Source: a virus (taxonomy: Duplodnaviria; Heunggongvirae; Uroviricota; Caudoviricetes). From it: DNA of 7,560 nt. Numbering within the stretch: position 1 is the stretch's first letter; every line of letters starts with the position of its first letter. The notes under the pieces are model-generated. The model was not told the DNA's origin and ran no database searches. It saw only the letters and a list, made by a program, of their open reading frames with translations. This document shows positions 1-7,560 of this stretch, piece after piece. The position numbers and the translations under genes were made by a program. The stretch is taken from positions 1 to 7,560 of IMG/VR virus record IMGVR_UViG_2541047943_000002, one strand, 5' to 3'.

Positions 1-24
1 ATCGTTAAGCCGGGCCGTGAATCC

Positions 25-1011
25 ATGCCGGTATTCCACAATACCCGGGTACTGGTGGAGCCGGAACCGAAAAGCATGCGTAATCTGCCGTCCGGAGTCG
101 TTCCTGCCGTTCGACAGCCGCTGGCAGAGGATAAAATATTACTGCCATTTTTCAGCAACGAACGGGTGATTCGTGCTGCGGGTGGCGCTGGTGCACTGTC
201 TGACTGGTTATTACGTCACGTGAAATCCTGCCAGTGGCCACACGGTGATTATCATCACAGCGAAACCGTCATTCACCGTTACAGTACCGGCGCGATGGTG
301 TTGTGCTGGCACTGTGACAACCAGCTGCGCGACCAGACATCAGAATCACTCGATCAACTTGCTCAGCAGAATCTGGTTGCCTGGATGATTGACGTCATCC
401 GTCACGCAATAAGCGGTACGCAGGAGAGGGAGTTATCGCTGGCCGAATTATCCTGGTGGGCGGCCTGCAATCAGGTGGTGGATGCACTACCTGAGGCAGT
501 AGCGCGTCGTTCGCTGGGATTACCGGTGGAAAAAATCCGCTCCGTATACCGTGAGAGTGACATCGTACCGGGAGAACAGACAGCCATCAGCATACTGAAG
601 CAGCGCACAAAAAATATTGCGCTGCCACTTCACGTCCACCAGCAACAGCCCCCACCCCAGGAAAAGACGTTAGTAAGCATCGCCGTTGATCCGGAGTCTC
701 CGGCTCAGTACCTCCAGCGCCAGAAACCACAACGGGAAGAGATGCCTGTATACACGCGCTGGGTAAAAACGCAGAAATGCATGACGTGTGGCAATCAGGC
801 AGATGATCCGCATCACATCATTGGTCATGGACTGGGAGGGATGGGAACAAAGGCTGACGATTTGTTTGTTATTCCGCTGTGTCGTAAATGCCATAACGAA
901 CTACACGCCGGGGTAAAAGATTTTGAAGAAAAACACGGTAGTCAGTTGTTGTTGCTGATTCGTTTTTTAATGCACGCGAGAAATTCGGGTGTTCTGAAGT
1001 GGAAAGCATAA
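25..1011 (+). CDS. DUF968-family prophage protein (YdfU-like) with C-terminal Cys/His HNH-like zinc motif; probably 5'-truncated by the window edge
   Basis: 328-aa ORF; the frame is open upstream of the first ATG back to position 1 and there is no Shine-Dalgarno before 25, so the real start is probably upstream of the window. C-terminus carries CMTCGN...DPHHIIGHG...CRKCHNELH (CxxC...HH...CxxC-H...H). Immediately followed by rusA (TAA-ATG junction at 1009-1014). Family assignment is from memory. Confidence 0.7.
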   Translation: MPVFHNTRVLVEPEPKSMRNLPSGVVPAVRQPLAEDKILLPFFSNERVIRAAGGAGALSDWLLRHVKSCQWPHGDYHHSETVIHRYSTGAMVLCWHCDNQLRDQTSESLDQLAQQNLVAWMIDVIRHAISGTQERELSLAELSWWAACNQVVDALPEAVARRSLGLPVEKIRSVYRESDIVPGEQTAISILKQRTKNIALPLHVHQQQPPPQEKTLVSIAVDPESPAQYLQRQKPQREEMPVYTRWVKTQKCMTCGNQADDPHHIIGHGLGGMGTKADDLFVIPLCRKCHNELHAGVKDFEEKHGSQLLLLIRFLMHARNSGVLKWKA

Positions 1012-1392
1012 ATGACCGAACGCATAGAATTTGTTTTGCCTTACCCGCCGACGGTGAACACTTACTGGCGACGCCGTGGCAGCACATATTTTGTATCAAA
1101 AGCCGGGGAGCGTTATCGCCGGGCAGTGGCGCTTATTGTTCGCCAGCAGCGCTTGAAATTAAGCCTGTCCGGACGGTTGGCAATAAAAATTATTGCAGAA
1201 CCACCGGATAAGCGCCGCCGTGACCTGGACAATATTCTGAAAGCACCGCTGGATGCGCTGACGCATGCGGGGTTGCTAATGGACGATGAGCAGTTTGATG
1301 AAATCAATATCGTTCGTGTTCAGCCAGTATCTGGTGGACGTCTGGGGGTGAAGATTTACCCCATAATGCTTGAAGGGCAGGTCAAAAAATGA
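1012..1392 (+). CDS. rusA: Crossover-junction endodeoxyribonuclease RusA (Holliday junction resolvase)
   Basis: 126-aa translation has the RusA hallmarks: N-terminal LPYPPTVNTYWRRRG and the catalytic-region motif DKRRRDLDNILKAPLDALTHAGL. GGAAAG Shine-Dalgarno 6 nt upstream of the ATG; stop overlaps the next start (ATGA at 1389-1392). Confidence 0.88.
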   Translation: MTERIEFVLPYPPTVNTYWRRRGSTYFVSKAGERYRRAVALIVRQQRLKLSLSGRLAIKIIAEPPDKRRRDLDNILKAPLDALTHAGLLMDDEQFDEINIVRVQPVSGGRLGVKIYPIMLEGQVKK

Positions 1393-2210
1393 AACTGGAA
1401 GATTTACCGAAATACTACTCCCCAAAATCCCCCGGCCTGACTGATGCATCGGCCTCAACGTCGAAAGATGCGCTGAGTATCACTGATGTGATGGCCGCGC
1501 AGGGCATGACACAGAATCGGGCTGAGATGGGGTTTTCTGCGTTCCTTGGGAAAATGGGCATTAGTATGAATGACAGAGAGCGGGCAACAGAATTGCTGAC
1601 AGAATATGCACTCAGTCGGTGTGATCGCATGGCGGCGTTAAGAAAACTCCCGGCAGAAATAAAACCGGCAGTGATGCGTATTATGGCTTCGTATGCGTTT
1701 GAAGATTATGCCCGTAGCGCGGCGAGCAAAAAACAGTGCCCCTGCTGTCACGGAAAAAAATTTATTGAAAGCGAGGTTTTTACAAACAAGATCCAGTATC
1801 CGGATGGTAAGCCGCCAGTGTGGGCAAAGTGCACAAAAGGCGTGTATCCGTCTTACTGGGAGGAATGGAAAAAAGTCAGGGAGGTGGTCAAAGTTGCCTG
1901 TCCGGACTGTGGAGGGAAGGGAGAGGTATCCACTGCCTGTAAAGATTGTCGTGGGCGCGGTGTTGCCATTCATCGTGAAGAGTCTGAAAAACAGGGTGTG
2001 CCGGTTTTCAGAAACTGTCAGCGTTGTGGTGGGCGTGGCTATGAAAGATTACCTTCAACGGAGGCATTTAATGCCATATGTAATGTAACCGATGCCATAT
2101 CTCTTGATACATGGAAAAAAACAGTTAAACGTTTTTACGATACGCTGGTGGTGCAGTTTGATATTGAAGAAGCATGGGCAGAACAACAACTGAAAAAGGT
2201 GACCAGATAG
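1389..2210 (+). CDS. Q-like late-gene antitermination protein with four CxxCxGxG (DnaJ-type) zinc-finger repeats
   Basis: 273-aa ORF translationally coupled to rusA. Position (after rusA, immediately before a promoter plus intrinsic terminator) matches Q of lambdoid phages. Repeats CPCCHGKK, CPDCGGKG, CKDCRGRG, CQRCGGRG are visible in the translation. Q-family membership is inferred from context and recollection, not from a search. Confidence 0.6.
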   Translation: MKLEDLPKYYSPKSPGLTDASASTSKDALSITDVMAAQGMTQNRAEMGFSAFLGKMGISMNDRERATELLTEYALSRCDRMAALRKLPAEIKPAVMRIMASYAFEDYARSAASKKQCPCCHGKKFIESEVFTNKIQYPDGKPPVWAKCTKGVYPSYWEEWKKVREVVKVACPDCGGKGEVSTACKDCRGRGVAIHREESEKQGVPVFRNCQRCGGRGYERLPSTEAFNAICNVTDAISLDTWKKTVKRFYDTLVVQFDIEEAWAEQQLKKVTR

Positions 2211-2212
2211 CT

Positions 2213-2243
2213 TTGTTGATTTTTCCCGAATCTGTGGTAAATT
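2213..2243 (+). promoter_or_regulatory. pR'-like late promoter (-35 TTGATT 2216-2221, 16-bp spacer, extended -10 TGgTAAATT 2235-2243)
   Basis: Sigma70-like hexamers with correct spacing and a TG at -15/-14, lying directly after the Q-like gene and about 50 nt before an intrinsic terminator. This is the geometry expected for a Q-modified late promoter and its tR'. Confidence 0.5.
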
Positions 2244-2292
2244 TGCCCTAACGATGGGCGTTTTATGCCTGACGTTAGAAGATTTTTTACAC

Positions 2293-2315
2293 CCCGCCGC
2301 CTGGCGGGTTTTTTA
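2293..2315 (+). terminator. tR'-like intrinsic terminator (CCCGCC-gcct-GGCGGG + TTTTTTA)
   Basis: Perfect 6-bp GC stem with a 4-nt loop followed by a 6-T run. A 17-codon mini-ORF (2265-2318) with tandem AGA-AGA codons runs through it. Confidence 0.75.
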
Positions 2316-2436
2316 TGACTGAAATCGCGTCAGTACAGTAAACGCGCTGGTGGTTGCGAATACGGGTCTTTCAGCTTGCTGGCTTTTTCGACAAGAGTTA
2401 TTGGTATGTCACGTTAACCGGAAAAGGGAAAAAGAC

Positions 2437-2634
2437 ATGCTAAAACAGCAGGATATGACAGAAACCGCCAGAGTGGTGTTTAATGAATTAAGCGTTACCG
2501 ACCCGGCGACAGTCGGGGAGATTGCGCAGAATACTTACCTTTCACGTGAACGCTGCCAGTTAATACTGACCCAGCTTGTTATGGCGGGGCTGGCAGACTA
2601 TCAGTTCGGTTGTTACAGACGCCTTCAGTCCTGA
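2437..2634 (+). CDS. Small (65 aa) putative winged-helix DNA-binding protein
   Basis: ATG at 2437 is preceded by AAGGGA 8-9 nt upstream. The motif TVGEIAQNTYLSRERCQLILTQLVMAGL looks like an HTH recognition helix. The stop codon lies inside a strong intrinsic terminator. The longer track ORF from 2350 has no ribosome-binding site and is rejected. Confidence 0.5.
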   Translation: MLKQQDMTETARVVFNELSVTDPATVGEIAQNTYLSRERCQLILTQLVMAGLADYQFGCYRRLQS

Positions 2635-2648
2635 AGGCTTTTTTATTT
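2621..2648 (+). terminator. Intrinsic terminator (GCCTTCA-gtcc-TGAAGGC + TTTTTTATTT)
   Basis: 7-bp stem, 4-nt loop and T-run directly after the small ORF. Confidence 0.75.
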
Positions 2649-2658
2649 GTGGTAAATG
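2648..2658 (+). promoter_or_regulatory. Second copy of the TGTGGTAAAT extended -10-like element, upstream of the methyltransferase gene
   Basis: The 10-mer TGTGGTAAAT at 2648-2657 is identical to the pR'-like -10 region at 2233-2242. No good -35 is present, but extended -10 promoters can work without one. Confidence 0.3.
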
Positions 2659-2784
2659 GGCGGCTGGTGGGTGTTAGGGGCACTCACCAGCCATCTGCTC
2701 ATGCGTCCGGATCACAAGCAAACCTCAGGCCCACTGCTTTGCGCAAAAGCAGAATGAGCCTATCAGAGACAGGCTTAATGATCC

Positions 2785-3843
2785 ATGCTTAGTACTGTAA
2801 AAATATCCAGTTGTGAGTTAATCAACGCCGACTGCCTGGAATTTATCCGGTCGTTACCCGAAAATTCTGTTGACCTGATAGTCACGGACCCGCCGTACTT
2901 TAAAGTGAAGCCTGAGGGCTGGGATAACCAGTGGAAGGGCGACGATGATTACCTGAAGTGGCTGGACCAGTGTCTGGCGCAGTTCTGGCGGGTGCTGAAA
3001 CCTGCCGGAAGTCTTTACCTGTTCTGTGGCCATCGCCTGGCGTCTGATATCGAAATCATGATGCGTGAACGCTTCAGTGTGCTGAACCATATTATCTGGG
3101 CGAAGCCGTCCGGACGCTGGAACGGATGCAACAAGGAAAGCCTGCGGGCGTATTTCCCCGCCACAGAGCGCATTCTGTTCGCGGAACATTATCAGGGGCC
3201 GTATCGTCCGAAAGATGCCGGGTATGCGGCGAAGGGCAGTGCACTGAAACAGCATGTGATGGCCCCGCTGATTTCTTACTTTCGTGATGCGCGTGCTGCC
3301 CTGGGGATAACGGCAAAACAGATTGCTGATGCCACAGGAAAGAAAAACATGGTGTCGCACTGGTTCAGTGCCAGCCAGTGGCAGCTACCGGACGAAAGCG
3401 ATTATCTGAAATTACAGGCGCTGTTTGCCCGGGTGGCAGAAGATAAGCATCAGCGCGGAGAACTGGAAAAGCCACATCACCAACTGGTCAGCACATACAG
3501 TGAACTGAACCGGCAGTATACGGAACTGCAGAGTGAATATAAGCATCTGCGGCGGTATTTTGGTGTGACGGTGCAGGTGCCGTACACCGATGTGTGGACG
3601 CATAAACCGGTGCAGTACTATCCCGGGAAACATCCGTGCGAAAAACCGGCAGAAATGCTGCAGCAGATAATCAGCGCTAGCAGTCGTCCGGGTGACCTGA
3701 TTGCAGATTTTTTCATGGGGTCGGGTTCGACAGTGAAAGCGGCACTGGCGCTCGGGCGTCGTGCAACTGGCGTTGAGCTGGAGACTGAACGTTTTGAGCA
3801 GACGGTTCGGGAAGTACAGGATTTAGTCAGCCAGAACGGATGA
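2785..3843 (+). CDS. Beta-class DNA amino-methyltransferase (N6-adenine or N4-cytosine); apparently orphan
   Basis: 352-aa ORF with catalytic motif IV DPPY (VTDPPYF) near the N-terminus and the AdoMet-binding motif I FxGxG (DFFMGSGST) near the C-terminus, which is the beta-class order. No restriction endonuclease partner is in the window. Confidence 0.85.
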   Translation: MLSTVKISSCELINADCLEFIRSLPENSVDLIVTDPPYFKVKPEGWDNQWKGDDDYLKWLDQCLAQFWRVLKPAGSLYLFCGHRLASDIEIMMRERFSVLNHIIWAKPSGRWNGCNKESLRAYFPATERILFAEHYQGPYRPKDAGYAAKGSALKQHVMAPLISYFRDARAALGITAKQIADATGKKNMVSHWFSASQWQLPDESDYLKLQALFARVAEDKHQRGELEKPHHQLVSTYSELNRQYTELQSEYKHLRRYFGVTVQVPYTDVWTHKPVQYYPGKHPCEKPAEMLQQIISASSRPGDLIADFFMGSGSTVKAALALGRRATGVELETERFEQTVREVQDLVSQNG

Positions 3844-3883
3844 TATTGAAGAATTAATTACGCGTCGTTATTATGCGGCTCCC

Positions 3884-3959
3884 GGCCCTTTAGCTCAGTG
3901 GTGAGAGCGAGCGACTCATAATCGCCAGGTCGCTGGTTCAAATCCAGCAAGGGCCACCA
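3884..3959 (+). tRNA. ileZ: tRNA-Ile2 (anticodon CAU, ileX/ileZ-like; Met cannot be excluded from sequence alone)
   Basis: 76-nt cloverleaf: acceptor GGCCCTT/AAGGGCC, D-arm GCTC-AGTGGTGA-GAGC, anticodon loop CTCATAA, T-arm GCTGG-TTCAAAT-CCAGC, encoded CCA. Very close to E. coli ileX as I remember it. Gene symbol follows Stx-phage convention. Confidence 0.85.
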
Positions 3960-3968
3960 TATCACATA

Positions 3969-4045
3969 CCGCCATTAGCTCATCAGGATAGAGCGCCAGC
4001 TTTCGAAGCTGGTTGCGCGGAGTTCGGGTCCCCGAAGGCGGTCCA
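3969..4045 (+). tRNA. argN: tRNA-Arg (anticodon UCG), non-canonical features
   Basis: 77-nt cloverleaf with D-arm GCTC-ATCAGGATA-GAGC, anticodon stem CCAGC/GCTGG, loop TTTCGAA, T-loop TTCGGGT and encoded CCA. It has C1-G72, an A6/A67 mismatch, an A52/C62 mismatch and U73. Symbol assumed from the ileZ-argN-argO convention. Confidence 0.65.
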
Positions 4046-4058
4046 TTATCTGTATCCT

Positions 4059-4135
4059 GCGTTGTTAGCTCAGCCGGACAGAGCAATTGCCTTCTAAGCA
4101 ATCGGTCACTGGTTCGAATCCAGTACAACGCGCCA
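4059..4135 (+). tRNA. argO: tRNA-Arg (anticodon UCU, argU-like)
   Basis: 77-nt cloverleaf: perfect acceptor stem GCGTTGT/ACAACGC, anticodon loop CTTCTAA, T-arm ACTGG-TTCGAAT-CCAGT, G73, encoded CCA. Confidence 0.88.
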
Positions 4136-4179
4136 CACTTATTTTCCCTGGCTCGCTTTTGCGGGCTTTTTTTAAATGT

Positions 4180-4395
4180 CTCACAATTCAGGCGGTTGAC
4201 TGTTGTCTGGTTTGCGGGGAGTTTGTTAAAAGAAACTGGCATGGTGAATCCCCCTGTGCGGAGGGGCAATCAGCGAGTAGGTATATGGGATAATCGCGGA
4301 TTCAGGTGCTGGTACTGAATTCACCGGGAGGCACCCGGCACCATGCAATGGCACATAGCGCCACTCTCCAGCCCCTCTCCGGAGGGGCTTTTCTG
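4180..4395 (+). repeat. Tandem structured non-coding module, copy A (candidate sRNA / attenuator unit)
   Basis: Shares four conserved blocks with copy B: CTCACAATTCAG, GCATGGTGAATCCCCCTG(t/a)GCGGAGGGGC, CTGAA(t/c)TCACCGGGAGGCACCCGGCACCATG and AGCCCCTCTCCGGAGGGGCTTT. These are separated by non-homologous spacers. Ends in an intrinsic terminator. Confidence 0.6.
4372..4395 (+). terminator. Intrinsic terminator of module A (GCCCCTC-tccg-GAGGGGC + TTTTCT)
   Basis: 7-bp GC-rich stem, tetraloop and T-rich tail. Confidence 0.7.
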
Positions 4396-4583
4396 TGCCG
4401 GATACATCACAGTTTCTGGAACCTTAGGTACTACAGTATCAGTCAGGGTGCTATATTTTCAGATGTGATGAAAGCCTGTCAGCAGGCAGGGCGTATCGGA
4501 AATGACCCAGTAGAGAAAACGTTGACTCAGATACCGGTGCTGAGTTACCGGGAAACCGGCATCACATGACCGCTATCCTTCCA

Positions 4584-4610
4584 GGCCCATCCGCTCCGGT
4601 GGGCCTTTTT
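4584..4610 (+). terminator. Intrinsic terminator in the inter-module spacer (GGCCCATC ... GGTGGGCC + TTTTTA)
   Basis: 8-bp stem (one G-U pair), 6-nt loop and 5-T run. Sits 17 nt after the stop of a 33-codon ORF (4466-4567). Confidence 0.65.
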
Positions 4611-4646
4611 ACTGCAGAAAACAGGTTCCCCGTTAAATGCTATGTT

Positions 4647-4880
4647 GCTCACAATTCAGTAAGTTGACAGTTGCCTGTCAGACTGGGCATTTGTTAAAAA
4701 AATTTCGCATGGTGAATCCCCCTGAGCGGAGGGGCGACTGGTGACGGTATAATCTCTGATTATCAAAACGAGAATGACGCGGGTTTAGTGGCACCGGGCT
4801 GAACTCACCGGGAGGCACCCGGCACCATGTGCATGATGATACAGATACGCGGCTTTAGCCCCTCTCCGGAGGGGCTTTCT
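4647..4880 (+). repeat. Tandem structured non-coding module, copy B (candidate sRNA / attenuator unit)
   Basis: Same four conserved blocks as copy A; contains a perfect TATAAT at 4748-4753 in its variable centre; ends in an identical terminator. Confidence 0.6.
4858..4880 (+). terminator. Intrinsic terminator of module B (GCCCCTC-tccg-GAGGGGC + TTTCTTAT)
   Basis: Identical stem-loop to the module A terminator, followed by a T-rich tail. Confidence 0.7.
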
Positions 4881-5109
4881 TATGGACAAAAAAAGCCCGC
4901 GCTGGGAGACGCGGGCGGCAAGGAATAAACAATAAAACGTGAAGTAATATTTCAGCTGGCGAATAATACCCTATAGTAATCACTCTGCGCAACTGCGCGG
5001 TCTTTTTCGAATTGCGGGCTGTAGTCTCCCTTCTGCCATTGTCCTGTAACTTCCGGACTTCAGCCTGCTCCTTATCTGACTCACAACATTATCCCGCCCG
5101 GGAGGATTC

Positions 5110-6963
5110 ATGGCATTTAAACACTATGACGTGGTCAGGGCGGCATCGCCGTCAGACCTTGCGAAACGACTGACACAAAAACTGAAGGAGGGCTGGCAGC
5201 CGTTTGGTAGTCCGGTGGCCATAACCCCTTATACCCTGATGCAGGCGATTGCAGCAGAAGGTGATGTGGTCGTCAGTGGTGCAACTGAGCCGGAGTGGTA
5301 CTACGTCATCGTACTGGCCGGGCAATCCAATGCCATGGCTTACGGTGAAGGGCTTCCGCTTCCGGATTCATACGATGCGCCCCATCCGCGCATTAAGCAA
5401 CTGGCCCGTCGTAACACAGTGACTCCCGGTGGTGAAGTATGCGTATTTAACGACATCATTCCTGCTGACCATTGTCTGCATGATGTTCAGGATATGAGTA
5501 CGATTAACCATCCCCGGGCTGACCTGAGCAAAGGGCAGTACGGCTGTGTCGGACAGGGCTTACATATTGCCAAAAAACTGCTTCCGTATATCCCTAATAA
5601 TGCGGGGATCCTGCTGGTACCATGCTGTCGTGGTGGTTCGGCATTCACCCAGGGCACGGAGGGGACATTCAGCGAGTCCACGGGAGCCAGTCAGGATTCG
5701 GCTCGCTGGGGAGTGGGTAAGCCGTTATATCAGGATCTGCTTTTCCGCACGAAGGCAGCATTGCAGAAAAACCCGAAAAACGTTTTGCTGGCGATATGCT
5801 GGATGCAGGGGGAATTCGATATGACGAATGCCAGTTACGCCCAGCAGCCAGCAGCATTTCTTGCAATGGTACAGCAGTTCCGTGCTGACCTTGCCGGGCT
5901 GGCAGCGCAGTGTCACGGTGGAAGTCCGGCATCAGTCCCCTGGATTTGTGGCGACACGACATACGCGTGGAAACAAGAACACGGTACGCAATATGAAGTG
6001 GTATATGGTGCATATAAAGGTAAAGAATCCCAGCAGATTTATTTTGTTCCCTTTATGACCGATGGTAGCGGAGTTAATACACCGACAAACAACCCGTCAG
6101 AAGATCCTGATATTGCCGGGTCTGGTTATTACGGTTCGGCATCCCGAACGAACAAAAACTGGGTATCATCAAATCGCCCGACGCATTTCAGCTCATGGGC
6201 GCGTCGTGGCATTATTCCCGATCGTATGGCAACTGCTATTCTGAACGTAGCCGGTCGCACCTTAGCCTTCATTAGTGGTAAGGCACCGGAAATCAAACCC
6301 TCGCCCGGCGGCGACACGCCATCGGGGCCGTCTGAAGATGCATCCATACGCACAATCTCCCTGTTGCCGACAGCCGGAGACGCTGCTGCGCAGGGCTGGA
6401 GCATTAAGAATGGCGGAATTCAGTTGTCAGATGGTGTATTTAAGATCACCAAGCAGAGCAATAAAGCCTGGTCCCTGACGCGCCCGGTGGATGACGCAGT
6501 CTCCCTGCTGACACGGGGTGGCAGACTGAGCTGTAAGTTTCGACTGTCAGGCGCACTGACCAACAACCAGTTCGGTCTGGGAATTTATCTGTATACCGAT
6601 GTAGCGTTACCTGACGTCGTGGCGATGACCGGGACTGGTAACCCGTTCCTGATGTCGTTCTTCACCCAGACCACAGACGGCAAACTGAATCTGATGCATC
6701 ACAAGAAAGCAGGAAACACAAAGTTGGGCGAGTTCGGGAATTACAGTAACGACTGGCAGACGCTGGAGCTGGTGTTCACCGCCGGCAGTGCCACGGTTAC
6801 TCCGAAACTGAATGGAGTGGCTGGCCCGGCATTCCAGGTCATAAAAGACAGTCTGACACTGGGGCTGAATGCGCTGACGCTGACGGATATTACCAAAAAT
6901 GCAGCGTATGGCGTTGAGATAGAAAGTCTGGTGCTGGAGATAAATGCACCGGCATCATCATAA
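5110..6963 (+). CDS. nanS-p: Prophage-encoded sialate O-acetylesterase (NanS-p type: N-terminal DUF1737-like region, SGNH/SASA esterase core, roughly 250-aa C-terminal domain of unknown function)
   Basis: 617-aa ORF with GGAGG Shine-Dalgarno 5 nt upstream. The N-terminus MAFKHYDVV...GWQPFGSP matches the NanS-p/YjhS prophage family as I remember it. A GQSN catalytic block (VLAGQSNAMAYGEG) is present. The position, directly before the holin, is typical of Stx-phage-like prophages. Confidence 0.8.
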   Translation: MAFKHYDVVRAASPSDLAKRLTQKLKEGWQPFGSPVAITPYTLMQAIAAEGDVVVSGATEPEWYYVIVLAGQSNAMAYGEGLPLPDSYDAPHPRIKQLARRNTVTPGGEVCVFNDIIPADHCLHDVQDMSTINHPRADLSKGQYGCVGQGLHIAKKLLPYIPNNAGILLVPCCRGGSAFTQGTEGTFSESTGASQDSARWGVGKPLYQDLLFRTKAALQKNPKNVLLAICWMQGEFDMTNASYAQQPAAFLAMVQQFRADLAGLAAQCHGGSPASVPWICGDTTYAWKQEHGTQYEVVYGAYKGKESQQIYFVPFMTDGSGVNTPTNNPSEDPDIAGSGYYGSASRTNKNWVSSNRPTHFSSWARRGIIPDRMATAILNVAGRTLAFISGKAPEIKPSPGGDTPSGPSEDASIRTISLLPTAGDAAAQGWSIKNGGIQLSDGVFKITKQSNKAWSLTRPVDDAVSLLTRGGRLSCKFRLSGALTNNQFGLGIYLYTDVALPDVVAMTGTGNPFLMSFFTQTTDGKLNLMHHKKAGNTKLGEFGNYSNDWQTLELVFTAGSATVTPKLNGVAGPAFQVIKDSLTLGLNALTLTDITKNAAYGVEIESLVLEINAPASS

Positions 6964-7046
6964 AAAGTGAGCCAGTCAAATGGAAGGTATCGTTAAACTC
7001 ACCGGTAGTGTCAGTGGGTCGTCTGAGATGCCTGCATGAGTTATCA

Positions 7047-7078
7047 GAGCCATCAGTACTTAACTGGTGGCTTTTTTT
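7047..7078 (+). terminator. Intrinsic terminator between esterase and holin genes
   Basis: Stem AGAGCCATCAG / CTGGTGGCT (with a G-U pair), 7-nt loop, then TTTTTTT. Confidence 0.6.
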
Positions 7079-7113
7079 ATTGTTGTCAGCTTCCGGATAA
7101 CGGGAGACGGGGT

Positions 7114-7329
7114 ATGGACCAGATGGAAAAAATCACAACAGGTGTGTCATACACCACGTCAGCGGTGGGAACGGGCTACTGGTTCCTGCAGTTGCTGGAC
7201 AGGGTTTCCCCGTCTCAGTGGGCGGCAATAGGCGTGCTGGGGAGTCTGCTGTTTGGGCTGCTGACATATCTGACTAACCTGTATTTCAAAATCAGAGAGG
7301 ACCGTCGTAAGGCTGCACGGGGAGAGTAA
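7114..7329 (+). CDS. S: S21-type pinholin (class II holin) with dual-start motif M-D-Q-M
   Basis: 71-aa product [71 protein letters not shown] closely resembles the phage 21 S pinholin as I remember it (two transmembrane segments, charged C-terminus). GGAG is 8 nt upstream. The 97-aa track ORF from 7036 starts before the terminator and is rejected. Confidence 0.85.
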
Positions 7330-7333
7330 TTCA

Positions 7334-7560
7334 ATGACTCAAAACTATAAACTGATTGTGAAAGGGATCCGCAATTTTGAGAATAAAGTTACGGTAACTT
7401 TAGCGTTACGGGACAAAAAACGCTTTGACGGTGAAATTTTTGACCTGGACATCTCGCTGGACCGTGTTGAAGGTGCCGCGCTGGAGTTTTATGAGGCAGC
7501 AGCCAGAAGGAGCATCAGACAGGTCTTCCTGGATGTTGCTGCCGGGTTATGTGAAGGGGA
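7334..7560 (+). CDS. 5' part of a late-region gene of unknown function (YdfR/DUF1327-like), truncated by the window end
   Basis: ATG at 7334 with GGAGAG 6 nt upstream. The frame stays open for 75 codons to the window end (MTQNYKLIVKGIRNFENKVTVTLALRDKKRFDGEIFDLD...). Position between holin and the expected endolysin matches ydfR-like genes. Contains AGA, AGG and AGA codons within a few residues. Family recalled, not verified. Confidence 0.55.
   Translation, partial: MTQNYKLIVKGIRNFENKVTVTLALRDKKRFDGEIFDLDISLDRVEGAALEFYEAAARRSIRQVFLDVAAGLCEG

Follow-up and report, generated by a model that had tools for sequence, protein, structure and literature searches.

Between the tRNA cluster and the esterase gene of a tailed phage (IMG/VR record IMGVR_UViG_2541047943_000002, positions 1 to 7,560, hereafter the window) lies a stretch, 4180-4880, that carries repeated and apparently structured modules, and the question is what these modules are and whether they work as RNA, as protein-coding sequence or as DNA. 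Both repeated modules belong to the prophage small-RNA family STnc100, which is already in Rfam (RF02076) and which the original prediction had left unrecognised. The family itself is known and the window contributes no new kind of element; the minor additions are an array of three units, here called A, B and C, and the diverged paralogue in its middle, where only two copies had previously been counted.

The surroundings follow the lambdoid late-region order, with the Q antiterminator gene (1389-2210), a DNA methylase gene and the tRNAs upstream of the units and the esterase and holin genes downstream, a layout that corresponds to prophages Sp4 and Sp5 of Escherichia coli O157 Sakai. The phage tRNA cluster (3884-4135, plus strand; a CAT-anticodon tRNA annotated ileZ, then argN and argO) was located with ARAGORN, the Rfam tRNA model and the RefSeq annotation of near-identical loci, and a terminator hairpin follows it on the same strand (4150-4174, terminator scan). 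The units run in the sense direction of the late operon, in the lambdoid prophage 'moron' site where stx sits in Stx phages, which bears out the proposal of an stx-equivalent locus; the position between the late promoter and tRNAs on one side and the lysis genes on the other is common to STnc100 genes.

In the Rfam covariance-model search units A and C gave full-length matches to RF02076 (model positions 1-206), with 136.3 bits over 4210-4400 and 165.4 bits over 4678-4887, respectively, the gathering score being 47 bits. The EcOnc05 locus of Sakai Sp4 is 98.8% identical to window positions 4136-4392, EcOnc05 has a core and a tail near-identical to those of unit A, and its Northern probe, once reverse-complemented, is the variable segment of unit A (4268-4296). 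Units A and C belong to the same family as the O157 members EcOnc05, EcOnc06 and EcOnc27 (= sRNA103). Sp4 holds one STnc100 unit, and the copies described in the literature are dispersed, whereas the window has three units head to tail within 700 bp. With respect to Sp4, the extra sequence begins after the unit A terminator and comprises a junction, unit B and unit C, and the sequence shared with Sp4 resumes past the identical 22-nt terminator block of unit C.

The repeat search recovered a direct repeat of 88 nt (4180-4267 and 4648-4735, 80% identity), one of 31 nt (4315-4345 and 4799-4829, 97% identity) and the identical terminator block of 22 nt (4370-4391 and 4857-4878); all the blocks listed in the original prediction were found where it had placed them. 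The CA-rich box CTCACAATTCAG occurs exactly twice in the window (4180 and 4648) against 0.04 occurrences expected, and two were reached in 0 of 200 shuffles. Compared segment by segment, units A and C are identical at 28/29 positions of the P1-P2 block, 23/24 of the block from P4 to the second strand of P1 and 22/24 of the terminator, as against 17/47 in the variable region and 12/27 in the tail. Of the earlier idea that conserved stems carry free loops, the part on the hairpin loops did not hold, these being conserved, while variation does occur in an internal segment, in the covarying P3 hairpin and in the 3' tail.

Each unit consists of an upstream CA-rich box, an extended -10-like motif, a core of four helices (P1-P4), a variable 3' tail and an intrinsic terminator, all on the plus strand. 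In unit A the CA-rich box (4180-4191) is followed by the extended -10-like motif TGTTAAAAG (4224-4232), with TTGTCT 18 nt upstream (4203-4208) and a predicted start at G4239. The structured core (4239-4346), defined by RF02076, by a covariance model of our own (111 bits), by folding and by covariation, is made of P1 (4239-4246 with 4339-4346), P2 (4251-4255 with 4262-4266), the variable segment, P3 (4298-4305 with 4315-4322) and P4 (4324-4328 with 4334-4338), all reproduced in the minimum-free-energy fold. The 3' tail (AAUGGCACAUAGCGCCACUCUCC), of a type common to many phage loci, and the intrinsic terminator (stem 4370-4389 plus U run, terminator scan) occupy 4347-4392. Unit C has the same parts: the CA-rich box (4648-4659), a candidate extended -10-like motif TGTTAAAAA (4692-4700) with TTGCCT 18 nt upstream (4671-4676) and a predicted start at G4707, the P1-P4 core (4707-4830; RF02076, 109.7 bits with our own model, folding), in which the variable segment is longer than that of unit A, and the 3' tail (GCAUGAUGAUACAGAUACGCGGCUUU) with its intrinsic terminator (4831-4879, stem 4857-4876; terminator scan and fold).

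The minimum-free-energy folds of all three units contain P1-P4 and the terminator, in agreement with the known STnc100 structure, a long-range helix that encloses hairpins and is followed by a terminator hairpin. Within the core GCAUGGUG pairs with CACCAUGC, and GCATGGTG and CACCATGC, which had been listed around hairpin 1, are the two strands of the long-range helix P1, which encloses both hairpins. In an alignment of 48 distinct homologues fitted to the covariance model, 98.2% of cells are paired, compared with at most 54% when the partners are slid, and changes on both sides are seen in 16 of 26 pairs; RNAalifold run on an unfitted MAFFT alignment returned the same helices. P1, the GAAU junction, P2 and P4 are 87-96% identical among the 48 distinct sequences and the variable segment 36%, figures that are inflated by the retrieval of the loci through an exact match to the P1-P2 block, so that P1 and P2 look invariant in part because of how the loci were chosen. 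Together, covariation and folds support the selection on RNA structure that had been proposed. The family is also built as a mosaic, with 39 distinct cores and 30 distinct tails, and some STnc100 cores carry a PasD-type tail. Kissing of the P2 loop with the P4 loop, considered from the sequence, was dropped, since unit B and variant loops do not keep the pairing.

The stretch between the two modules had been taken as non-homologous spacer, and it holds unit B, a third and diverged unit. Its putative extended -10 motif TGCTATATT (4449-4457) ends 5 nt before the base of P1, a position relative to P1 that agrees with the motifs of units A and C and of PasD2. The core (4463-4567) scores 60.2 bits (E 1.7e-10) with our own model and folds at minimum free energy into the same four helices: P1 AUGUGAUG / CAUCACAU, P2 GCCUG / CAGGC, P3 GACUCAG / CUGAGU and P4 CCGG-GAAA-CCGG. 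In the aligned rows every helix is kept in unit B by compensatory changes. The 3' tail (GACCGCUAUCCUUCC) and the intrinsic terminator (stem 4583-4606 plus U run; terminator scan, fold) follow at 4568-4611. The full-length alignment to RF02076 (4439-4612) reaches 30.1 bits, under the gathering score, and unit B is best called a diverged relative. Such a paralogue escapes Rfam-based annotation, and unit B is present yet unannotated in 673 of 5426 complete E. coli genomes; strains with the three-unit array include CE10, ATCC 11775 and NMBU_W05E18.

Directly after unit C the minus strand carries a convergent antisense RNA gene (4888-5053; terminator stem 4916-4895, U run 4894-4888), a homologue of EcOnc08/EcOnc21, and a convergent antisense partner is likewise part of the STnc100 arrangement elsewhere. 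Window positions 4880-5109 share 92.6% identity with the part of Sp4 where the minus-strand Hfq-CRAC peaks EcOnc08 and EcOnc21 lie, for which a Northern signal of ~271 nt has been reported, and the 3' part of the gene matches the EPEC RIL-seq RNA 'E2348C_1409.E2348C_1408.IGR'. This gene bears on the suggestion that the modules might themselves be the anti-small RNAs AgvB or AsxR. The models RF02702 (AgvB) and RF02703 (AsxR) gave no match at E<=1 in the whole window or at E<=10 in 4400-5110, while they do detect AgvB and AsxR adjoining STnc100 in related loci, where these genes lie immediately 3' of the STnc100 gene and converge on it (L143, L153, L170 and L235). AgvB and AsxR are RNAs of 51-60 nt on the opposite strand, antisense to the late operon, variable towards the 5' end and conserved over ~42 nt in the 3' region, a design that the modules do not have; the modules are on the sense strand and unrelated in sequence. 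Since AgvB and AsxR occupy the antisense position in related prophages, they are neighbours of the modules and not the modules, and in the window their slot (4888-5053) is filled by the EcOnc08/21-type RNA.

A closer comparison is offered by PasD1 and PasD2 of EPEC E2348/69, which have in common with the units the P1-P2 block (GCAUGGUGAAUCC...GGAGGGGC), the P3 hairpin and the promoter motif, and which lie directly upstream of a sialate-esterase or a holin gene, as the window units do. PasD2 aligns with P1, P2, P3 and the TATTAAAA motif and has no counterpart to the P4 3' arm; with the RF02076 model PasD reaches 38-41 bits. A common ancestry of PasD and STnc100 was proposed in a 2026 preprint; PasD is described as STnc100-related by structure and Hfq-dependent, with RIL-seq partners, and has its seed UGUGAG just 5' of the terminator. 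The long U-rich tail with this seed distinguishes PasD from all three window units, which lack it, and TTGTGAG was not found on the plus strand in 4180-4880. A PasA/PasC gene was sought in the esterase-holin spacer (6964-7113) and is absent from it, only the flanks aligning with E2348/69, and the PasA seed GCCAGCACC was not found in the window.

A consensus promoter scan returned no two-hexamer promoter for the units, and for this reason the promoter assignments rest on the conserved extended -10-like motifs and on homology with PasD2. A TGTTA(A/G)AA-type motif is found in 50 of the 55 distinct upstream regions, and the CA-rich box precedes the family member in 34 of them. In PasD2 the equivalent motif precedes the 5'-most position of the RNA in the RIL-seq chimera table, the G of GCAUGG, and these data and the conserved TGTTAAAA motif argue for GCAUGG as the start. 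The Northern sizes in EHEC, ~222 nt for EcOnc05 and 235/247 nt for EcOnc27, are compatible with a 5' end near the CA box and point to a start ~55-70 nt upstream. The predicted transcription start sites of the units are either ~4184 / 4646, with the CA box inside the RNA, or 4239 / 4463 / 4707. The CA-rich box may begin a long RNA form or else be a conserved element upstream of the promoter.

Expression of the units may be judged by analogy with near-identical or related copies in the literature, from which transcription, Hfq binding, Hfq-dependent stability and a tail seed would be expected. EcOnc05, EcOnc06 and EcOnc27 have Hfq-CRAC peaks and Northern bands, the EcOnc05 peak in Sakai Sp4 covering the equivalent of ~4271-4379. 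EcOnc27 (sRNA103) is located downstream of stx2B, and its 247-nt form is destabilised without hfq; the reported effects of sRNA103 on fimZ and espA come from overexpression. Eleven STnc100 copies are transcribed in EDL933, one of them confirmed by Northern blot, and the RNAs are abundant and Hfq-bound in both EHEC and EPEC. Sequence variants of the member directly downstream of stx2 have recently been linked to the risk of HUS.

On these grounds the locus probably comprises three tandem, independently terminated STnc100-family genes that act as Hfq-dependent trans base-pairing RNAs, together with the convergent antisense gene. Each unit would give an RNA of ~150-235 nt with a four-helix 5' domain, a short variable single-stranded tail and a Rho-independent terminator. 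Base pairing in trans with Hfq is the likeliest way for them to act. Hfq would contact the U-tail of the terminator and the tail next to it, pairing with mRNAs or with further small RNAs would fall to the variable tail and perhaps, in the longer form, to the CA-rich 5' box, and the conserved core may serve as a stabilising or docking scaffold. Because each unit has its own apparent promoter and its own terminator, expression in the lysogen as 'moron' genes would be expected; in the lytic cycle, transcription by Q-modified RNA polymerase would run past the unit terminators on to the esterase gene and the lysis genes.

Sibling small RNAs duplicated in tandem are familiar from OmrA/OmrB, PrrF1/PrrF2 and Qrr1-5. 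Like the array, these are adjacent paralogues, partly conserved and partly differing, each with its own promoter and terminator; unlike it, they are core-genome genes, their conserved part is the seed or the Hfq-binding end, and they are without a large conserved structured domain. Plain Hfq small RNAs do not usually carry a conserved structured domain of this size, 105-125 nt, and the base-pairing model leaves it unexplained.

Other readings of the same blocks have to be weighed against this one. It was earlier suggested that the 3' arm of hairpin 1 could pair with the 5' arm of the terminator, and the modules would then be cis-acting attenuators gating entry into the esterase and lysis genes. 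On paper the cross-pairing is possible, the 3' arm of hairpin 1 (GGAGGGGC) being the same as the 3' arm of the terminator, and in unit C the forced fold lies only 2.1 kcal/mol above the minimum-free-energy fold; in unit A it costs 8.1 kcal/mol, and hairpin 1, made ~100 nt ahead of the terminator, is locked within the P1 domain. Comparison of tails also speaks against it, as the terminators of 8 of the 30 distinct family tails are unrelated and lack the CCCCTC arm, and in unit B, where hairpin 1 and terminator are both different, the complementarity is absent. The units do stand upstream of the esterase gene in the late operon, but each lies between a promoter-like motif and a terminator of its own, an antisense gene and 230 nt come between the last terminator and the start codon of the esterase gene, and late-gene readthrough in lambdoid phages is provided by Q, whose gene the window carries. 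With constrained folding and tail comparison both against it, attenuation is very improbable. More improbable still is a coding role, either as a small protein, such as a near-leaderless ORF MVNPP(V/E)RRG... from ATG 4241 or 4709, or as remnants of a degraded gene. The ATG is 2 nt past the predicted proximal start and opens ORFs of 11-12 codons in units A and C, ribosome footprints have been reported on some EDL933 copies, and PGAP puts pseudo or hypothetical CDSs on these loci; yet the putative peptides diverge and stop at different places right after the P2-constrained region, unit B has no equivalent ATG-initiated ORF, and the changes are compensatory for base pairs and not synonymous. Pfam matches at or near the curated cut-off were absent from all ORFs between the tRNAs and the esterase gene, and at most 22 of the 48 distinct homologous cores keep any one reading frame open, on which the coding readings were rejected and the earlier view of the modules as non-coding upheld. 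The spurious CDSs that genome annotation sets on STnc100-family genes call for caution.

The remaining readings accept the RNAs or the mosaic and interpret them otherwise. As decoys or scaffolds, the RNAs would mainly dock a specific protein or RNA through the core, or would sponge, through the 5' CUCACAA box, small RNAs with a UUGUGAG seed, for which PasD, the antisense EcOnc21-like RNA and the GU-rich R1 region of GcvB are candidates. The strong conservation of P1, junction, P2 and P4 next to the variable segment is in line with this, although it is overstated by the way the loci were retrieved; CUCACAA complements the PasD seed region UUGUGAG exactly, a third CTCACAA is found in the esterase 5' UTR (5080-5086) with its complement in the antisense RNA, and sponging is proven for AgvB and AsxR of the same loci, which the units would then resemble. 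Four CTCACAA matches were counted against 1.03 expected, but the match is just 7 nt long and 4 of 200 shuffles attain the observed count, and this reading is considered unlikely. Also unlikely, if slightly less so, is that the array is a modular cassette system and not a set of three redundant copies; the core would dock a non-Hfq partner, recombination would shuffle the tails and the CUCACAA decoy box onto it, and the units would form an RNA-sponge network with the antisense RNA and the PasD-type relatives; if so, unit B would found a third, unnamed subfamily in ~12% of complete E. coli genomes. Lastly, the conserved blocks could act as DNA, as boundaries of lambdoid recombination and mosaicism or as protein-binding sites, with the RNAs as by-products. 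Tails, cores and upstream regions are indeed reshuffled among phages, arrays of 2-4 units exist, and the extra sequence relative to Sp4 lies between shared sequences. Recombination would account for how the parts spread; it leaves unexplained the compensatory base-pair changes of P1 and P3 and the promoter-terminator framing, and the RNAs of EHEC and EPEC are found in abundance and bound to Hfq. A DNA-level role is hardly credible, ranking between attenuation and the coding readings.

The locus sequence, tRNA cluster plus small-RNA units, matches 3338 of the 5426 complete genomes, with as many as 17 places in a single genome, and few accessory small RNAs of pathogenic E. coli are as widespread as those of the STnc100 family. 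When the GTDB genome collection was scanned for the 16-base pattern GCATGGTGAATCCNCCT, nearly all matches were due to chance, in unrelated phyla, the sole genuine family member being L075 (Superficieibacter); claims on taxonomic breadth are limited to this locus and to the Rfam family name. The window, with its homologous loci, shows that family units occur in tandem arrays of 2-4 and that a fixed core goes with swappable tails, and the array, the diverged paralogue and the core/tail build are a useful start for assigning function.

The intergenic region between the tRNA cluster and the esterase gene holds three tandem units of the STnc100 small RNA family, termed here units A, B and C (cores at 4239-4346, 4463-4567 and 4707-4830, plus strand). 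Units A (4180-4395) and C (4647-4880) are the two modules of the original prediction, whose reading of them as structured non-coding RNA was right; the feature is real and was correctly seen. A repeat search of the window returned the blocks where they had been placed, as an 88-nt direct repeat (4180-4267 and 4648-4735, 80% identical), a 31-nt repeat (4315-4345 and 4799-4829, 97% identical) and a terminator block identical in both modules (4370-4391 and 4857-4878), and the CA-rich box CTCACAATTCAG, 5' of units A (4180) and C (4648), occurs exactly twice in the window against 0.04 expected. The segments between the blocks are non-homologous, as had been proposed, the two units being essentially unrelated there (17/47 identical positions in the variable segment, 12/27 in the tail that precedes the terminator). 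In the Rfam scan of the window both modules gave full-length matches to STnc100 (RF02076, gathering score 47 bits), the stronger one at 4678-4887 (165.4 bits) and the other at 4210-4400 (136.3 bits).

Given these matches and the earlier papers on STnc100, the family is already known. In the Sakai prophage Sp4 of E. coli O157, the stretch that starts where argO ends and takes in one STnc100 gene is 98.8% identical to window 4136-4392; the Hfq-CRAC peak EcOnc05, with a Northern signal of ~222 nt, has been placed in this stretch (Tree et al., 2014, Table S2; PMC4104026), and the variable segment of unit A is the reverse complement of the EcOnc05 Northern probe. By their probe sequences, EcOnc06 and EcOnc27 can be assigned to the family too; the former lies in Sp17 (Northern ~177 nt), the latter in Sp5 downstream of stx2B (Northern ~235/247 nt), its 247-nt form being destabilised without hfq (PMC4104026). 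Eleven transcribed STnc100 copies are reported in EDL933, one of them with a Northern blot (PMC5331693), STnc100 overlaps EcOnc27/sRNA103 beside stx2, where variants predict HUS (PMC12711010), outer-membrane vesicles contain STnc100 (PMC12370729), and PasD, an EPEC small RNA, is structurally related to it (bioRxiv 10.64898/2026.05.13.724894). The modules are thus members of a catalogued family, one unit being near-identical to an experimentally detected EHEC small RNA; what is added here is that three units form an array whose middle paralogue is diverged and unannotated, that the family combines a fixed core with swappable tails, and that AgvB and AsxR are neighbours encoded on the opposite strand.

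The core was compared across 119 IMG/VR loci, gathered by exact match to the P1-P2 block; among these, 39 cores and 30 3' tails are distinct. It is a four-helix domain in which P1 (GCAUGGUG / CACCAUGC) encloses all else: P2 (hairpin 1 of the prediction, CCCCU / AGGGG), 28-50 nt of variable sequence, the 8-bp hairpin P3, and P4 (hairpin 2, CCGGG-AGGCA-CCCGG), which abuts the 3' strand of P1. Each window unit folded alone with RNAfold recovered P1-P4 and the terminator (z-scores -2.3, -2.3 and -1.4), and RNAalifold, given 16 diverse cores aligned by MAFFT in the ordinary way, returned P1, P2, P3 and a 3-bp P4. A covariance model built from that alignment found 124 matches in 100 sources; in the resulting alignment of 48 distinct sequences, which is fitted to its own model, standard pairs fill 98.2% of cells, a share that falls to 37-54% on sliding the 3' partners by 1-3 columns, and changes on both sides occur in 16 of 26 pairs (P3 8/8, P1 5/8). 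None of 500 shuffles reached any of these measures. Examples in P1 are AUAUGGCG / CGCCAUAU, GCGUGGUG / CACCACGC and AUGUGAUG / CAUCACAU in place of the usual pair, and the high identity of P1 and P2 is partly by construction, because the retrieval pattern fixes both in most sequences. Selection on RNA structure, as originally proposed, is therefore supported by the folds and by compensatory pairs across related prophage loci.

Two module copies are indeed present, but the 250 bp between them is a third, diverged STnc100/PasD-like unit rather than a spacer. Rfam aligns 4439-4612 (+) to the entire STnc100 model at 30.1 bits, under the gathering score, and our own model matches 4463-4567 at 60.2 bits (E 1.7e-10). 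Unit B keeps all the helices with other letters (P1 AUGUGAUG / CAUCACAU, P2 GCCUG / CAGGC, P3 GACUCAG / CUGAGU, P4 CCGG-GAAA-CCGG), has its own terminator (4583-4606) and carries a perfect extended -10 (TGCUAUAUU; TGCTATATT at 4449-4457, plus strand) that ends 5 nt 5' of P1. It is found, as two sequence variants, in 673 of 5426 complete E. coli genomes, the match region being without annotation in 11 of the 12 records listed; window 3860-5110, with the tRNA cluster at one end and the start of the esterase gene at the other, is present whole in 318 genomes, ExPEC, APEC and O121 strains among them. Arrays of 2-4 family units occur in 11 of the 119 phage loci, mostly with a unit-B type between two canonical units, and reach four units in contig L127 (2326-3350, minus strand). 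The cores within arrays of related contigs (L127, L178, L219, L173, L145) are mutually diverged, and in L177 a tRNA gene lies immediately 3' of the STnc100 gene. Compared with Sp4, the window has an extra junction, unit B and unit C after the unit A terminator, and the shared sequence picks up again after the identical 22-nt terminator block of unit C; unequal recombination could plausibly have acted on this block.

Across the family the short tail and terminator that follow the core are mosaic: one and the same core is followed by eight or more types of tail, STnc100 cores with a tail of PasD type among them, and 8 of the 30 distinct tails have a terminator other than GCCCCUCUCCGGAGGGGC. The tails of unit A (CACUCUCC) and unit B (UAUCCUUCC) are pyrimidine-rich and, as a guess, could pair with Shine-Dalgarno regions.

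For the RNA 5' ends two positions can be proposed. Starts at the base of P1 (about 4239, 4463 and 4707) are suggested by an extended -10-like motif of the type TGTTA(A/G)AA, 6-7 nt 5' of GCAUGG in 50 of 55 distinct upstream regions, by the -10 of unit B at the equivalent position, and by PasD2 of EPEC E2348/69 (172 nt, NC_011601 741157-741328), whose 5'-most position in the RIL-seq chimera table is the G of GCAUGG. An alternative start 55-70 nt farther upstream, near the CA-rich box, is suggested by the Northern sizes of box-bearing EHEC copies (~222 nt for EcOnc05, 235/247 nt for EcOnc27, against 153 and 171 nt predicted from GCAUGG) and by a conserved TTAAAT-like hexamer that precedes the box in diverse contexts. 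Short and long forms may both exist; if the long form does, the box would be the RNA 5' end.

Directly 3' of unit C lies a minus-strand terminator (4916-4895) belonging to a convergent antisense RNA gene (4888-5053, minus strand), a homologue of Sakai EcOnc08/EcOnc21: window 4880-5109 and the part of Sp4 with these minus-strand Hfq-CRAC peaks share 92.6% identity, and the 3' part matches the EPEC Hfq RIL-seq RNA 'E2348C_1409.E2348C_1408.IGR'. The reported Northern band is ~271 nt (PMC4104026), and an RNA of this length would overlap the esterase gene in antisense, reaching its 5' UTR and its start codon. The antisense slot belongs to AgvB or AsxR at the loci of related phages, with STnc100 at 7075-7265 (+) and AgvB at 7266-7327 (-) in L143, and STnc100 on the minus and AsxR on the plus strand in L170; such an STnc100/antisense RNA 'dyad' has been described for at least eight Sakai prophages. 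That the modules themselves might be AgvB or AsxR was ruled out, RF02702 and RF02703 giving no match at E<=1 in the window, nor at E<=10 in 4400-5110; since these RNAs fill the antisense slot in related phages, their mention in the original prediction was right as to the locus and wrong as to strand and gene.

Most likely, the locus comprises three genes in tandem, each for a small RNA that acts in trans and depends on Hfq. [quoted passage not shown] The units would be expressed from the lysogen, with pairing specificity in the variable tail beside the terminator, where PasD has its seed UGUGAG; the 5' box of a long form may add to pairing, and the conserved core would act as scaffold or stabiliser. 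Terminator readthrough by Q-modified polymerase is established lambdoid biology, and during lytic growth such polymerase would read through the three terminators.

The attenuator-like pairing of hairpin 1 with the terminator, offered in the original prediction, is a weak competitor and was not borne out: constrained folds with the cross-pairing imposed lie 8.1 kcal/mol (unit A) and 2.1 kcal/mol (unit C) above the minimum-free-energy fold, P1 encloses hairpin 1, and the complementarity is missing in many family members. It is unlikely that the blocks encode a small protein, as the ORFs of 4087-5111 gave no credible Pfam match; the sole PGAP annotation there in a 99.7% identical genome is a minus-strand pseudo-fragment. 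A role purely at the DNA level would leave the compensatory pairs unexplained. The sole alternative worth keeping is a decoy or scaffold role, for which speaks a core conservation far above the needs of an Hfq small RNA. Moreover, CUCACAA complements the PasD seed region and a UUGUGAG predicted to lie in the antisense RNA, and CTCACAA occurs at 4180-4186, 4648-4654 and a third time at 5080-5086 (+), in the esterase leader 24 nt before the start codon; the four CTCACAA/complement matches, against 1.03 expected by chance, are a weak signal because 4 of 200 shuffles attain that count.

The flanking genes are, in order, DUF968, RusA, antiterminator Q, a DNA methylase and three tRNAs, then the SASA esterase, holin and DUF1327, which makes the locus the late-region 'moron' site, home of stx in Stx phages. 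In RefSeq, minus-strand hypothetical or pseudogene CDSs, probably spurious, cover STnc100 and PasD genes, with the ncRNA not annotated there (L001 4368-4493, L002 1698-1939, L003 1801-2199). The tRNA at 3884-3959 (+) is tRNA-Met (CAT) by ARAGORN, and the identical gene is tRNA-Ile (ileZ) in RefSeq, the usual reading of a lysidine-modified CAT anticodon. Downstream of Q, ATYTGTGGTAAAT is repeated 415 bp apart (2230-2242 and 2645-2657, plus strand), near terminators at 2293-2308 and 2621-2638; the copies look like two PR'-type extended -10 promoters, and StxS-like short late transcripts from this region are possible. A short repeat, GCTGGTGG(T/G)TG, lies at 2346 and 2663, with an inverted repeat at 2662-2692. 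A 65-aa ORF without a Pfam match (2437-2634, plus strand) lies between tR' and the methylase gene and is followed by the strong terminator 2621-2638. The short esterase-holin spacer (6964-7113, plus strand) holds a terminator-like hairpin, AGCCATCAGTACTTAACTGGTGGC, plus a T run, the two together at about 7047-7077; PP2 of E2348/69 carries the PasA gene at the equivalent position, the spacer lacks it, and the sequence that precedes the holin gene in PP4 of E2348/69 matches the 3' part of the spacer at 93% identity.
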